64,000 nt of DNA from a virus (Duplodnaviria > Heunggongvirae > Uroviricota > Caudoviricetes). Under the pieces are notes generated by a model, which was not told where the DNA came from, ran no database searches, and saw nothing but the letters and a program-made list of their open reading frames with translations. Below are positions 27,724 through 31,110 of the stretch, one piece after another. The translations under genes and the position numbers were made by a program. The stretch is from positions 25,787 to 89,786 of the IMG/VR virus record IMGVR_UViG_3300029288_003766; one strand, 5' to 3'. Within the stretch, counting starts at the first letter, position 1, and the number at the start of each line of letters is the position of its first letter.

Positions 27724-28863
27724 ATGATTATAAACTCTATACTTGATAGTGATTTTTATAAATTTTCGATGGGCCAGGTGGTCCTATTCTTCTTTAAAGG
27801 CCTTCCTGTAAAATATAAATTCATCCTACGCAATCCTATAGAATTCCCCGATGGGTTTGGTAGCAGACTACAGGATGAAATAAATCATTTGGCTACTTTA
27901 AAATTGACCAATGATGAATATAAGTGGTTAGCTACCAACCCTAATATCTATAGGTATTACCTTGATTGGTTGTCGACTTACCAGTTTAATCCTGAGGAAG
28001 TGGAAGTAATTTTTACAGACAACAAATTAGAGTTAACAATAGAAGGACCCTGGGAGCGGACGATCTATTGGGAAGTGCCTCTTTTAGCTATAATATCTGA
28101 GTTGTATTTCTCTATGACCAACCAAACCGTGGATAGTAGAGCGGTTTTGGATAGGACATTGGAGAAGGGCAAACAATTAGCCGGCATTCCTTTTGTTGAT
28201 TTTGGCACAAGGAGACGGTTATCTTTTAATGCTCACGATCATGTAATTAATGGGTTTATTAACTCTGAATCAAAAGGAAACTTTATTGGAACTAGCAATC
28301 CCTATTTTGCAAGAAAATATGGGATATGGATAATTGGAACTTACGCACATGAGGCTATTATGGCTATGCAGGCCTTGGTGGGAGTAGAAGATTGTAATAG
28401 TGCCTGGTTGGAGTACTGGAAGGTTGTTTATGGCAAGATGCTTAACGTTGCCTTAGGTGATACATTGACTACAGATTACTTTCTTAACTCTACAAATGAC
28501 GTGATGTTTAACCTTCTTGATGGGATCAGGCAAGATTCTGGTGATCCTATTGAGATCGGATGGAAGATAGTAAACAAATGGCGTGAATTAGGTATAGATC
28601 CTAAAACAAAAAACATAGTATTCAGTGATAACCTTAATCCCGATAAAGTAAAAGTTATCTGGGATACGTTTAAAGATATAACGATGCCAATTTTTGGGGT
28701 AGGTACGAATTTGACGAATGATTTCGGCCCCAAACCACTTAACATGGTCATAAAAATGATCGAGGCCGATGGCAAGCCTGTGGTAAAGCTCTCTGATGAT
28801 AAAGGAAAATATACCGGTGATCTAGAAACAATTGAAAAAGTAAAAAAGGAATTGAAAATATGA
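27724..28863 (+). CDS. pncB: nicotinate phosphoribosyltransferase
   Basis: Block-by-block match to PncB: ILDSDFYKFSMGQVV, GPWERTIYWEVPLLAIISE, VDFGTRRRLS, FIGTSN, IRQDSGDP, FSDNLN, KPLNMVIKM..GKPVVKLSD. Confidence 0.85.
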   Translation: MIINSILDSDFYKFSMGQVVLFFFKGLPVKYKFILRNPIEFPDGFGSRLQDEINHLATLKLTNDEYKWLATNPNIYRYYLDWLSTYQFNPEEVEVIFTDNKLELTIEGPWERTIYWEVPLLAIISELYFSMTNQTVDSRAVLDRTLEKGKQLAGIPFVDFGTRRRLSFNAHDHVINGFINSESKGNFIGTSNPYFARKYGIWIIGTYAHEAIMAMQALVGVEDCNSAWLEYWKVVYGKMLNVALGDTLTTDYFLNSTNDVMFNLLDGIRQDSGDPIEIGWKIVNKWRELGIDPKTKNIVFSDNLNPDKVKVIWDTFKDITMPIFGVGTNLTNDFGPKPLNMVIKMIEADGKPVVKLSDDKGKYTGDLETIEKVKKELKI

Positions 28864-29030
28864 AGATACTAGATAAACAAAAAATCATTACTTTTGATAA
28901 GTCAGCATTGAAAGATATATGCTCTGCCCTTAATATTCCGTATGATAAAAATATAATTGGTTTTACCAAGAAGGGTGTAGTTAAGAACATATTTGATTTG
29001 ATTAATGATCTTGAAAGAAAAGAGCGATAA
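28860..29030 (+). CDS. hypothetical small protein (56 aa)
   Basis: ATGA overlap with pncB stop; unlisted in track (<60 aa). Confidence 0.3.
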   Translation: MKILDKQKIITFDKSALKDICSALNIPYDKNIIGFTKKGVVKNIFDLINDLERKER

Positions 29031-29031
29031 T

Positions 29032-29232
29032 ATGATAAACTGTCCTGAATGTAATGAACAGCAATGGAGTATGATGGATAAAGAGTACCTTAAACTGTTT
29101 GGCCATTGTTGGTCCTGCGATAAGAAGCTTTGGGAAGAGGGTAAACTGTCTCTTGAAGAATTTGAGAAACGTGAACGAGAGGCGTTAAGGAGCCAGGAAG
29201 AAGATGAGCAGACAAATAATCAAGAAGGATAA
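29032..29232 (+). CDS. zinc-ribbon small protein
   Basis: Start at ATG 29032 (MINCPECNEQ); CPEC ... CWSC. Confidence 0.4.
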   Translation: MINCPECNEQQWSMMDKEYLKLFGHCWSCDKKLWEEGKLSLEEFEKREREALRSQEEDEQTNNQEG

Positions 29233-29467
29233 CGGCAAGTACGCAATATGGTCTTCTATCGTTGATGACTTCATTTTTGATGATATTACAAAAGAAGAAT
29301 ACATGGAGTTTAGGTTAGCGGAATCAAAGAAGGAAGTTAAAAAAGATCTGGAAGAAATTTTTGATAAAATTGATAATGGTAAGAATGTCTATTACCAGTT
29401 TGCTATGACCTATAAAGACGCTTTGGCGTGGAAAGATCGGGTACATGGTAAAAGGAGTAAAAAATGA
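29204..29467 (+). CDS. hypothetical protein (87 aa)
   Basis: Coupled ORF. Confidence 0.4.
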   Translation: MSRQIIKKDNGKYAIWSSIVDDFIFDDITKEEYMEFRLAESKKEVKKDLEEIFDKIDNGKNVYYQFAMTYKDALAWKDRVHGKRSKK

Positions 29468-29640
29468 TTATTATTCCCATCAATGAAGAAATAAGACAAA
29501 AATGTAGAACATGCCCGGCCAAATTTATGATCCCAAAATCCTACTACCCGGGGATGGATTTATCTACCTGTGATAAGGTTGAATCTTGTCCTTGTGATTT
29601 TAATCCCAAGGAATATTTCGGTTGTATTTATATGGAATAA
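29464..29640 (+). CDS. hypothetical Cys-rich small protein (58 aa)
   Basis: ATGA overlap with upstream stop; CRTCP ... CPCDF. Confidence 0.3.
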   Translation: MIIIPINEEIRQKCRTCPAKFMIPKSYYPGMDLSTCDKVESCPCDFNPKEYFGCIYME

Positions 29641-29652
29641 GGAGATAAAATT

Positions 29653-30057
29653 ATGAAAAACAGCGTAGATATTAAACAGTTTGGTAAGGATCATTGGTCA
29701 GTGTTTGCTTACATAGAATCCTGTTGTGTTGACAACGGTGGGATTGTTAACATTAGACATATGAGATGTGATTTTGATAGACACCCTGGGTTGGCTCATA
29801 TGATTATACGAGAGAAATATCCTACTAGGTTAAAAGGATATTTTGAGCATAAGAATGATCCGGCGTATATAATTAAAAATCACGATGACTGGGATTGCGC
29901 TTATGATCTTGAGAAAGAAGGGCTAGTTAGGATGATAGGAACTGGGGTAAATCCTGTGTATAAATTAACAGCTCTGGGTAAAACAGTGGCGGGTAGGTTG
30001 CGAGCTTATAAAGCAAGCGGAGGAAATTTTGCAACTTTTGAGGTTGGTAGTCTATAG
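29653..30057 (+). CDS. hypothetical protein (134 aa)
   Basis: GGAG RBS; long ORF. Confidence 0.45.
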   Translation: MKNSVDIKQFGKDHWSVFAYIESCCVDNGGIVNIRHMRCDFDRHPGLAHMIIREKYPTRLKGYFEHKNDPAYIIKNHDDWDCAYDLEKEGLVRMIGTGVNPVYKLTALGKTVAGRLRAYKASGGNFATFEVGSL

Positions 30058-30065
30058 GAGGAGAG

Positions 30066-30260
30066 ATGAACGAAACTTATACAGTAAAGTTTAGGTGTTG
30101 TAATTGTCAGCATAAGTGGGAAGAACGGGTTGAAAAAGGTTTATTAGTAGAAACAGATTTAACTGGGACAGTAATAGTAACTGATGTTTGCCATGATTAT
30201 AGAGACCGAATTAAGTGCCCAAATTGTAATACGTTCTCAAAAGTAATTAGAGATTTATAG
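30066..30260 (+). CDS. zinc-ribbon small protein (64 aa)
   Basis: CCNCQH ... CPNC. Confidence 0.4.
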   Translation: MNETYTVKFRCCNCQHKWEERVEKGLLVETDLTGTVIVTDVCHDYRDRIKCPNCNTFSKVIRDL

Positions 30261-30271
30261 GAGGTCCCAAA

Positions 30272-30460
30272 ATGAATAAAATGTTGTTCTTATTGATTTT
30301 CGTGTGGGTCTTTATAAAGTTTGGGCCAGCAGAAGATCTGACTAGATTTTTAAACACCCTAACATTTAGGGAGCAGGAATCAGCAAAAATAGTATATGAT
30401 GTCAAAGATGTTGGAGAGCGGGCAGGTTGGTATTTATTCTACAATCGAGGAGGGCTTTAA
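30272..30460 (+). CDS. small membrane protein (62 aa)
   Basis: GGAGG RBS; N-terminal hydrophobic helix. Confidence 0.4.
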   Translation: MNKMLFLLIFVWVFIKFGPAEDLTRFLNTLTFREQESAKIVYDVKDVGERAGWYLFYNRGGL

Positions 30461-30462
30461 AA

Positions 30463-31110
30463 ATGAGAGTGCTATTCTGGGATGTTGACACACAAAAAGA
30501 TTTCATGTTACCTGATGGCAAGCTCTATATCAAGGATGCTGAGCAGATCAATGATAACTTGGAGAAGCTTACACGCTTTGCTTCTAGTAGAGGTATAACT
30601 GTGGTTAATACTGCAGATTACCACACCAAAGATTCTAAGGAGATCTCTGATACACCAGATTTTAAAACTACTTTTCCTAAGCATTGTATGGCCGGCGAGG
30701 AAGGCCAAGATCTTATTGATCAGACATACCCCAAACACTTTGTTGACAATTACTATATTATAGGGTATTCTGATAAGGAGATTAATGAAGATAAATTCAA
30801 GAGATCACGGAACATAATCATCTTGAAGGATGCTTTTGATGTGTTTGTGGGTAACCTATACACCAATAAGGTATTAGAGATGTTGTCTCCTGATTTGGTC
30901 GTTGTGTATGGGGTTTCTGGAGATTATTGTGTGGATTATGCAGTTAGGGGGTTATTAGCTCGTCAGTATAATGTAGTAGCTGTATATGATGCTATTAGAA
31001 GCATAGGAAAAACACCATTTGAAGAATGGGTAAAGCTAGGAGCAATGGTGATGTCAACAGATACAACCCTAGATTTTATTATTGGTGTAAAGAAATGCTA
31101 TGAAGGATAA
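30463..31110 (+). CDS. pncA: nicotinamidase / isochorismatase-family hydrolase
   Basis: VLFWDVDTQKDF (Asp of triad), ILKDAFD (Lys), VYGVSGDYCVDYAV (catalytic Cys in the DYCV context) align with E. coli PncA blocks. Confidence 0.8.
   Translation: MRVLFWDVDTQKDFMLPDGKLYIKDAEQINDNLEKLTRFASSRGITVVNTADYHTKDSKEISDTPDFKTTFPKHCMAGEEGQDLIDQTYPKHFVDNYYIIGYSDKEINEDKFKRSRNIIILKDAFDVFVGNLYTNKVLEMLSPDLVVVYGVSGDYCVDYAVRGLLARQYNVVAVYDAIRSIGKTPFEEWVKLGAMVMSTDTTLDFIIGVKKCYEG

Follow-up and report, generated by a model that had tools for sequence, protein, structure and literature searches.

Why would a bacteriophage carry genes for the recovery of nicotinamide? The question is raised by two genes, pncB (27724–28863) and a pncA-like gene (30463–31110), both on the plus strand of a 64,000-nucleotide stretch of an IMG/VR virus record (IMGVR_UViG_3300029288_003766, positions 25,787 to 89,786), which is called the window below and to which all gene coordinates refer. 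The window is part of a 214,834-bp contig (ENA ERZ27247363, k141_3129171), of which it occupies roughly 80.5–144.5 kb, and the stretch examined comprises the window plus 10 kb on either side, i.e., 84 kb at contig positions 70,779–154,174. Within the window, Pfam scans covered 50 open reading frames (ORFs), namely every called ORF of at least 128 amino acids and three shorter ones. As argued in the following paragraphs, the pair is likely to represent the entry half of the deamidating (PncA/Preiss-Handler) salvage route to nicotinamide adenine dinucleotide (NAD+), carried here by a phage.

The first gene is predicted to encode a nicotinate phosphoribosyltransferase (NAPRTase) of 379 amino acids. 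The initial annotation had placed a PncB at 27724, with position and strand both right, and the Pfam search bears this out: NAPRTase (PF04095) matches residues 157–378 with 170 bits and NAPRTase_N (PF17767) residues 7–125 with 103 bits, which completes the two-domain architecture of N-terminal domain and catalytic barrel. The ORF also matches at full length two NCBIfam models above their cut-offs, PRK05321 (411.7 bits, cut-off 379) and TIGR01514 (360.6 bits, cut-off 269.55), and aligns end to end with the PncB crystal structures 3os4 and 1yir (E ∼1e-64, ∼38% identity). In these alignments the GTYAHE motif, with His209 encoded at 28348–28350, coincides with GTQAHE and GTMAHE of the two structures, and the histidine is unchanged in 17 viral PncB sequences; this residue would correspond to the phosphorylated histidine of the ATP-coupled PncB enzymes of bacteria (GTxAHE motif). 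A PHROGs search returned only a weak match to a NAMPT family (46 bits), which is not useful for naming. By its profile and structure matches, then, the predicted product is PncB, a NAPRTase and not a Nampt, of the proteobacterial TIGR01514 type.

The second gene would encode a metal-dependent nicotinamidase of 215 amino acids that belongs to a divergent subfamily. A Shine-Dalgarno-like GAGGAGGG (30447–30454) lies 8 nt 5' of its ATG at 30463, and homologs begin at the equivalent Met. Against the Pfam family Isochorismatase (PF00857), a check that the initial annotation had itself suggested, the ORF scores 57.8 bits, above the cut-off of 27, and a database search yields more than 200 homologs, the majority of them on metagenomic, often viral, contigs. 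Alignment of 36 members of this PncA-like family reveals seven invariant residues, Asp9, Lys122, Cys156, Asp52, His54, Glu60, and His74, which, in alignments with PDB entries, occupy the positions of the catalytic Asp/Lys/Cys and of the metal ligands of nicotinamidases. The Asp-Lys-Cys triad, reported earlier with its cysteine in a DYCV context, is thus present and the catalytic cysteine has not been lost: Asp9 (30487–30489) aligns with Asp10 of the Pyrococcus horikoshii and Asp8 of the Mycobacterium tuberculosis PncA, Lys122 (30826–30828) with the lysine of dKEAYSGF in the P. horikoshii structure 1ilw, and the nucleophile Cys156 (30928–30930), in GVSGDYCV, with the cysteine of GVATEYCV in 1ilw.

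The metal site, which is what separates nicotinamidases from other amidases of the isochorismatase fold, is equally recognizable. Its D-x-H motif, Asp52-Tyr-His54 (30616–30624), aligns with DWH of 1ilw and DFH of 3pl1, and His74 (30682–30684), in an FPxHC motif, with the histidine of WPRHC and WPPHC in the same two structures, while Glu60 (30640–30642), the probable fourth ligand, takes the place of His57 of the M. tuberculosis enzyme. The reference ligands are presumably D52/H54/H71 in the P. horikoshii enzyme and D49/H51/H57/H71 in that of M. tuberculosis. When a profile of the family was searched against the PDB, the top four matches were all nicotinamidases, i.e., those of P. horikoshii (1ilw, 2e-19), 29iv (2e-15), M. 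tuberculosis PncA (1e-14), and yeast Pnc1 (3e-13). An AlphaFold (AF2) model of the protein, with a predicted local distance difference test score (pLDDT) of 92.7 and a predicted template modeling score (pTM) of 0.91, likewise has nicotinamidases as its top Foldseek matches (3o93, 6a8l, 3s2s, and 1ilw; TM 0.7–0.8), the enzymes being those of Streptococcus pneumoniae, Bacillus subtilis, Streptococcus mutans, and P. horikoshii. Motifs and modeled structure together make it very probable that this protein is a nicotinamidase.

The pairing of the two genes was then viewed across the 35 viral loci of IMG/VR with a member of the PncA-like family, with neighbors considered within 10 kb. A PncB homolog, detected by tblastn with the PncB of the window, is present in 27 of them. 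Five of the other eight have a different NAPRTase class, with PRK07188 and PRK08662 as best NCBIfam matches, and a third class (TIGR01513, 454 bits) occurs at locus L008. In total, 32 of the 35 loci contain a NAPRTase that belongs to one of these classes. In all 32 the NAPRTase and the PncA-like gene are co-directional, at a gap of −4 to 5,646 bp (median 1.3 kb), and both gene orders occur; at two of the three loci without a NAPRTase, the contig breaks off no more than 2.5 kb away from the gene. The claim that the two enzymes work together gains considerably from this arrangement, as non-orthologous classes of NAPRTase substitute for one another within 5.7 kb of the PncA-like gene: the function is kept while the family that supplies it is swapped, which argues for selection on the pathway and not for shared ancestry alone. 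That the two genes act as a pair, and that their pairing is not due to chance, is therefore supported by the comparison of loci.

Seen from the PncB side, IMG/VR contains at least 552 stretches with a gene for a relative of this enzyme. Within 10 kb of the 80 closest (L050–L129), a PncA-like gene occurs in 39, NadE in 53, and NadD in seven, the last figure being perhaps an undercount because the query sequences were few and divergent. With NadE so much more frequent than NadD at these loci, it seems that phages take up certain steps of the route rather than all of it. The 35 PncA-like loci, for their part, also contain NadE (23/35), NadD or an NMNAT-like gene (11/35), and a Nudix hydrolase (10/35). 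The same NadE-Nudix-NadD-PncA-PncB cluster exists in small-genome, candidate-phyla bacteria, and at L049 PncA stands directly before PncB. Against this background the two-gene route of the initial annotation turns out to be atypical, since most related viral modules, found from either gene, add NadE. The two-gene form is a minority among them, and this phage appears, as far as the 84 kb examined extend, to have it in common with its closest relative (L007/L051).

Within the window, both genes stand in a plus-strand gene run that starts near 14.9 kb. Intergenic gaps over 27282–31330 range from −29 to +13 bp, with starts and stops that overlap or abut, and the two genes thus lie in one tightly packed co-directional string that is probably co-transcribed; the layout suggests a single transcription unit. 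Terminator-like and promoter sites in a scan of the sequence showed no excess over shuffled sequence, so that operon boundaries cannot be set. The ∼1.6 kb of small ORFs noticed earlier between the two genes corresponds to seven plus-strand ORFs of 56, 75, 87, 58, 134, 64, and 62 amino acids (28860–30460). Several of them carry CxxC pairs, and their PHROGs matches are weak and to families of unknown function only. The 134-residue product, the sole one of the seven that was scanned against Pfam, has no match there, and it shares 59% identity with one in the related locus L007. These ORFs are at most candidate members of the pathway. On the other side of pncB, and ending 1 bp before it, lies a plus-strand gene (27282–27722) for a small HD-domain protein that resembles the hydrolase domain of RelA/SpoT (Pfam HD_4, 31 bits; TIGR00691, 60 bits, over the N-terminal 141 positions) and that may, judging from these matches, be an alarmone hydrolase. 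It was considered as a third member of the pathway and rejected, as no more than two other loci (L004 and L005) have it in the neighborhood of their PncA-like gene.

The proposed mechanism begins with the product of the pncA-like gene, which, as a metal-dependent cysteine amidohydrolase, would convert nicotinamide into nicotinate and ammonia. PncB would then combine nicotinate with phosphoribosyl pyrophosphate (PRPP) to give nicotinate mononucleotide (NaMN), probably with coupling to adenosine triphosphate (ATP) through His209, and NaMN would be turned into nicotinate adenine dinucleotide (NaAD) and NAD+ by NadD and NadE. The net effect would be that nicotinamide, the base freed whenever NAD+ is cleaved, is recaptured, and that the NAD+ pool of the infected cell is kept or rebuilt. 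The initial annotation had described the same course, with the pair producing NaMN and the host finishing NAD+. For its first half, the conversion of nicotinamide via nicotinate to NaMN, the linkage of the genes and the families to which they belong provide a good inference. The last two steps are most likely performed by host enzymes, and we infer this because NadD and NadE are near-universal in bacteria and no gene for either was found in the 84 kb of the phage that were examined.

A number of points weigh against salvage, or against its use in defense, and are best taken together. The PncA-like protein scores far below the curated PncA equivalog of NCBIfam (PRK11609, 37.3 bits against a cut-off of 174), and as this enterobacterial PncA model is its sole NCBIfam match, it is by score a divergent member and no equivalog of the enterobacterial enzyme. 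Other cysteine amidohydrolases follow close behind the nicotinamidases in the Foldseek list, with similar scores. Since the equivalog score is low and the fold is common to such enzymes, it is the metal-site motif and the gene context that carry the assignment of a substrate. The 35 loci include near-duplicates (e.g., L020/L021, L019/L033, and L031 with L032, L035, and L036), so that independent lineages are fewer than loci, perhaps half as many. No NadD, NadE, NMNAT, or Nudix gene was detected in the window, whether by tblastn with representative viral sequences as queries or by the Pfam scans of the 50 ORFs, and none was found in the 10 kb beyond either window end; this negative, which answers in part a check proposed earlier for the full phage genome, covers 84 kb of the 214.8-kb contig. 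Of the complete Preiss-Handler set (pncB, nadD, nadE), pncB is present, and nadD and nadE were not found in the stretch examined. The same Pfam scans disclosed no further NAD-related gene except a weak NadR-kinase-like AAA_28 protein, and, as a weak negative, none of the 120 sequences nearest to the NadE of locus L011 resides on a contig as long as this one (214,834 or 214,968 bp). With the last two steps left to the host, flux would be capped by its NadD and NadE, and the deamidating route needs four enzymes and more ATP. In addition, model hosts like E. coli own PncA, PncB, NadD, and NadE, yet they are depleted by NADase defenses; because hosts with the full route are still depleted, deamidating salvage may not be fast enough on its own.

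Several ways in which phages handle NAD+ have been described. The NAD+ reconstitution pathways NARP1 (Adps and Namat) and NARP2 (Nampt and Nmnat) allow phages to counter NADase defenses by rebuilding NAD+ (10.1101/2024.02.11.579819), and NARP3, made of PnuC and NadR, was published in 2026 (PMC13464706). PncA, PncB, and the deamidating route are mentioned neither in the NARP1/2 preprint nor in the NARP3 paper, and nothing relevant on a phage nicotinamidase or a "NARP4" was found in the searchable literature. A 2024 study of gut jumbo phages in Microbiome reports 174 "NAD-jumbo phages" in which the salvage or Preiss-Handler pathway is complete, including a pncB-nadD-nadE cluster, mentions phage pncA in passing, and proposes a link to NAD+-depletion defense (PMC11662467). 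The same suggestion, that of offsetting NAD+-depletion defense, is made in a 2026 phage genome paper for pncB, nadM, nadD, and nadE as auxiliary genes (PMC13384950). Phage pncB and the general idea of countering NAD+ depletion are already known; not found in the searchable literature are the nicotinamidase as entry step, its linkage to several NAPRTase classes, and the two-gene form. The initial annotation, which had named Adps/Namat and Nampt/Nmnat as the published routes and had called the present one distinct, was right in that it differs from NARP1 and NARP2, but its account was incomplete (NARP3, PMC13464706) and overstated the novelty (PMC11662467).

Compared with these systems, the pair most resembles in its chemistry bacterial salvage pathway I, in which PncA and PncB feed NadD and NadE (Preiss-Handler): the two enzyme families and the chemical order are the same, whereas here the genes are phage-borne, no NadD or NadE lies in the 84 kb examined, and the nicotinamidase is of a divergent subfamily. 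With the NAD-jumbo phages our phage shares jumbo size and pncB; the pathways defined in that study are complete and start from nicotinate, whereas the present one starts at nicotinamide and stops at NaMN, and the linkage of PncA and NAPRTase over viral contigs is not described in the accessible part of its text (PMC11662467). NARP2 and the NadV/NatV of Vibrio phage KVP40 likewise use nicotinamide, PRPP, and two phage genes with NAD+ as the aim; NARP2, however, is amidated and complete (nicotinamide to nicotinamide mononucleotide to NAD+), while here deamidation comes first and two further enzymes plus an amidation step are needed. NARP1 and NARP3 are also two-gene phage modules that rebuild NAD+, the former by re-joining ADP-ribose with nicotinamide and the latter by importing nicotinamide riboside. 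None of the three NARP pairs (Adps and Namat, Nampt and Nmnat, PnuC and NadR) was found by the Pfam scans of the 50 ORFs in the window.

Among cultured phages, Sinorhizobium phage Phosso (PV764938, L041; 469 kb) has PncB and, on the same strand and separated from it by small ORFs, a PncA-like gene (30% identity). Its block, at record positions 268773–274414, reads NadE-PncB-(small ORFs)-Nudix-NMNAT-"hydrolase", the last being the PncA-like gene, and the route is complete there, unlike here. The PncA-like gene of Phosso is annotated as "hydrolase" only; two genes further along comes one for a nucleoside deoxyribosyltransferase.

How far other explanations account for the pair depends in part on what the contig is. 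Were it a fragment of a small cellular genome, from a candidate-phyla bacterium or a DPANN archaeon, the genes would be ordinary cellular salvage genes, and some homologs do reside in metagenome-assembled genomes labeled Woesearchaeota, Nanoarchaeota, or Paceibacterota. The 84 kb, however, encode gp32, a PolA fused to UDG, a DnaB-like helicase, a primase, clamp-loader-like AAA+ proteins, and RecA, together with GIY-YIG and other homing endonucleases, two YopX proteins, and endonuclease VII; the ORFs are short and densely packed and change strand only once, this stretch yielded neither ribosomal genes nor any other core gene of cells, and the closest relatives are IMG/VR viral contigs. A cellular origin is accordingly very improbable, and the contig is almost certainly that of a jumbo phage of ∼215 kb, to judge from its gene content. 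A nucleotide search of 27000–32000 against 50,697 phage records gave no match, which leaves the phage without a close cultured relative at the DNA level, and PncB relatives in reference genomes are at best 44% identical (in a Bacteroidales metagenome-assembled genome) and uninformative on the host. It is also unlikely that the 30463–31110 protein is a cysteine amidohydrolase acting on another substrate, with its nearness to pncB incidental. Its low equivalog score would fit such an enzyme, as would the presence of N-carbamoylsarcosine amidase, biuret hydrolase, and other amidases at similar TM scores in the fold search, and its only PHROGs match, uninformative in itself, is to a family listed as of unknown function; the invariant D-x-H...E...H metal-binding set of the family and the NAPRTase adjoining it in nearly all of the viral loci speak for nicotinamide. 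A third proposal, that the main job is to remove nicotinamide, has the pair clear a product inhibitor of sirtuins and ADP-ribosyltransferases, so that NAD+-consuming enzymes of the phage or of the host stay active and PncB disposes of the nicotinate. Yeast Pnc1 does activate Sir2 by clearing nicotinamide, and many NAD+-consuming enzymes are reported for NAD-jumbo phages (PMC11662467). Here, the 84 kb examined yielded no enzyme that consumes NAD+, the tight linkage with NAPRTase and NadE over viral contigs points to synthesis, and removal would also free the defensive NADases of the host from inhibition; we regard this proposal as improbable.

If the pair serves salvage, as we prefer to read it, the benefit may be a general supply of NAD+ for replication, e.g., in hosts without pncA/pncB or in nutrient-poor settings, with no specific link to NAD-depleting immunity. 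Such an auxiliary metabolic module has a substantial, if less than even, probability. It is in keeping with how common PncB is in viral contigs, with its usual company of NadE, by which the locus resembles a biosynthetic cluster, with the same cluster in small-genome bacteria, and with the published description of NAD-jumbo phages as complementing, by their own pathways, what the host encodes (PMC11662467). It accounts less well for the nicotinamidase, which specifically adds an entry for nicotinamide, the product of NADase effectors, and for neighboring genes that are repair- or counter-defense-like and not biosynthetic, and it is compatible with a role in counter-defense. That role, protection against TIR/SIR2-type NADases, is within the salvage reading a real possibility of less than even probability, the remainder going to general supply; the two do not exclude each other. 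In its favor, nicotinamide is the product of TIR and SIR2 effectors, the neighborhood is rich in likely repair or counter-defense genes (RtcB, an RNA ligase, and Thg1-like and RlaP-like genes), and phages have been proven to rebuild NAD+ by three other routes. The most far-reaching version, namely that a PncA-like gene with NAPRTase, and usually NadE, forms a fourth, deamidating NAD+ reconstitution pathway that is widespread in jumbo phages, takes back the nicotinamide set free by TIR/SIR2-type effectors, and overcomes NAD+-depletion immunity, with this phage bearing a pared-down form reliant on host NadD and NadE, is offered tentatively and is less likely than not.

Other genes in the surroundings of the pair deserve a brief description. 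RNA repair is represented by RtcB (1120–2427, minus strand), a RlaP-like nucleotidyltransferase (20920–21879, plus), a Thg1-like 3'-5' polymerase (25554–26258, plus), and an RNA ligase (33200–34117, plus). In IMG/VR loci, too, the vicinity of the PncA-like gene repeatedly contains RtcB and RNA ligase, as well as a CCA-adding enzyme. This predicted gene content suggests an island of damage-reversal or counter-defense genes. A divergent adenylosuccinate-synthetase homolog (24448–25569, plus; Pfam 160 bits) keeps the GDEGKG motif, lies far below the cut-off of all NCBIfam PurA equivalogs, and reaches only 40.6 bits with the NCBIfam PurZ model; its best PHROG is phrog_1211, "2-aminooxy adenylosuccinate synthetase" (a PurZ-type family, 191 bits), and a 56%-identical copy stands directly before NadE in the related locus L011. 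It might serve to rebuild adenine nucleotides or be PurZ-related. The plus-strand gene at 51429–51998 encodes a 189-residue P-loop kinase of the AAA_28 family (phrog_3462, 36.7 bits; TIGR01526, 20.9 bits) with a weak likeness to the ribosylnicotinamide-kinase part of NadR and a closer one to a PHROG labeled thymidylate kinase (55.5 bits), and is a possible second link to NAD+ metabolism.

Just 3' of the pair lies a membrane-associated plus-strand trio (31563–32564, 34129–34707, and 35035–35508) for SPFH/Band 7, LemA, and TPM-domain proteins, and LemA and TPM homologs are also found 3' of the PncA-like gene in locus L005. Three consecutive plus-strand N6/N4 DNA methyltransferase genes (16768–19370; 396, 252, and 215 amino acids) probably shield the phage genome from restriction. 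Homing-endonuclease genes of the GIY-YIG/NUMOD3 and phrog_314 types (23586–24455, 47304–48056, and 55518–56153, all plus) are scattered among the replication and metabolic genes, one of them directly 5' of the PurA-like gene.

NAD+ depletion is among the commonest outputs of bacterial anti-phage systems, and none of the three proven phage routes for rebuilding NAD+ passes through the deamidating branch. If the block of PncA-like gene and NAPRTase, with or without NadE, does act in counter-defense, it would be a fourth such route, and the occurrence of these genes together in hundreds of large viral contigs would have an explanation; a phage, it would follow, can rescue NAD+ although it strengthens no more than certain steps of the pathway of its host. 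As a plain metabolic module the block would still be of practical use, in that it gives a better annotation to a divergent subfamily of nicotinamidases whose members are now called "hydrolase" or "unknown function".

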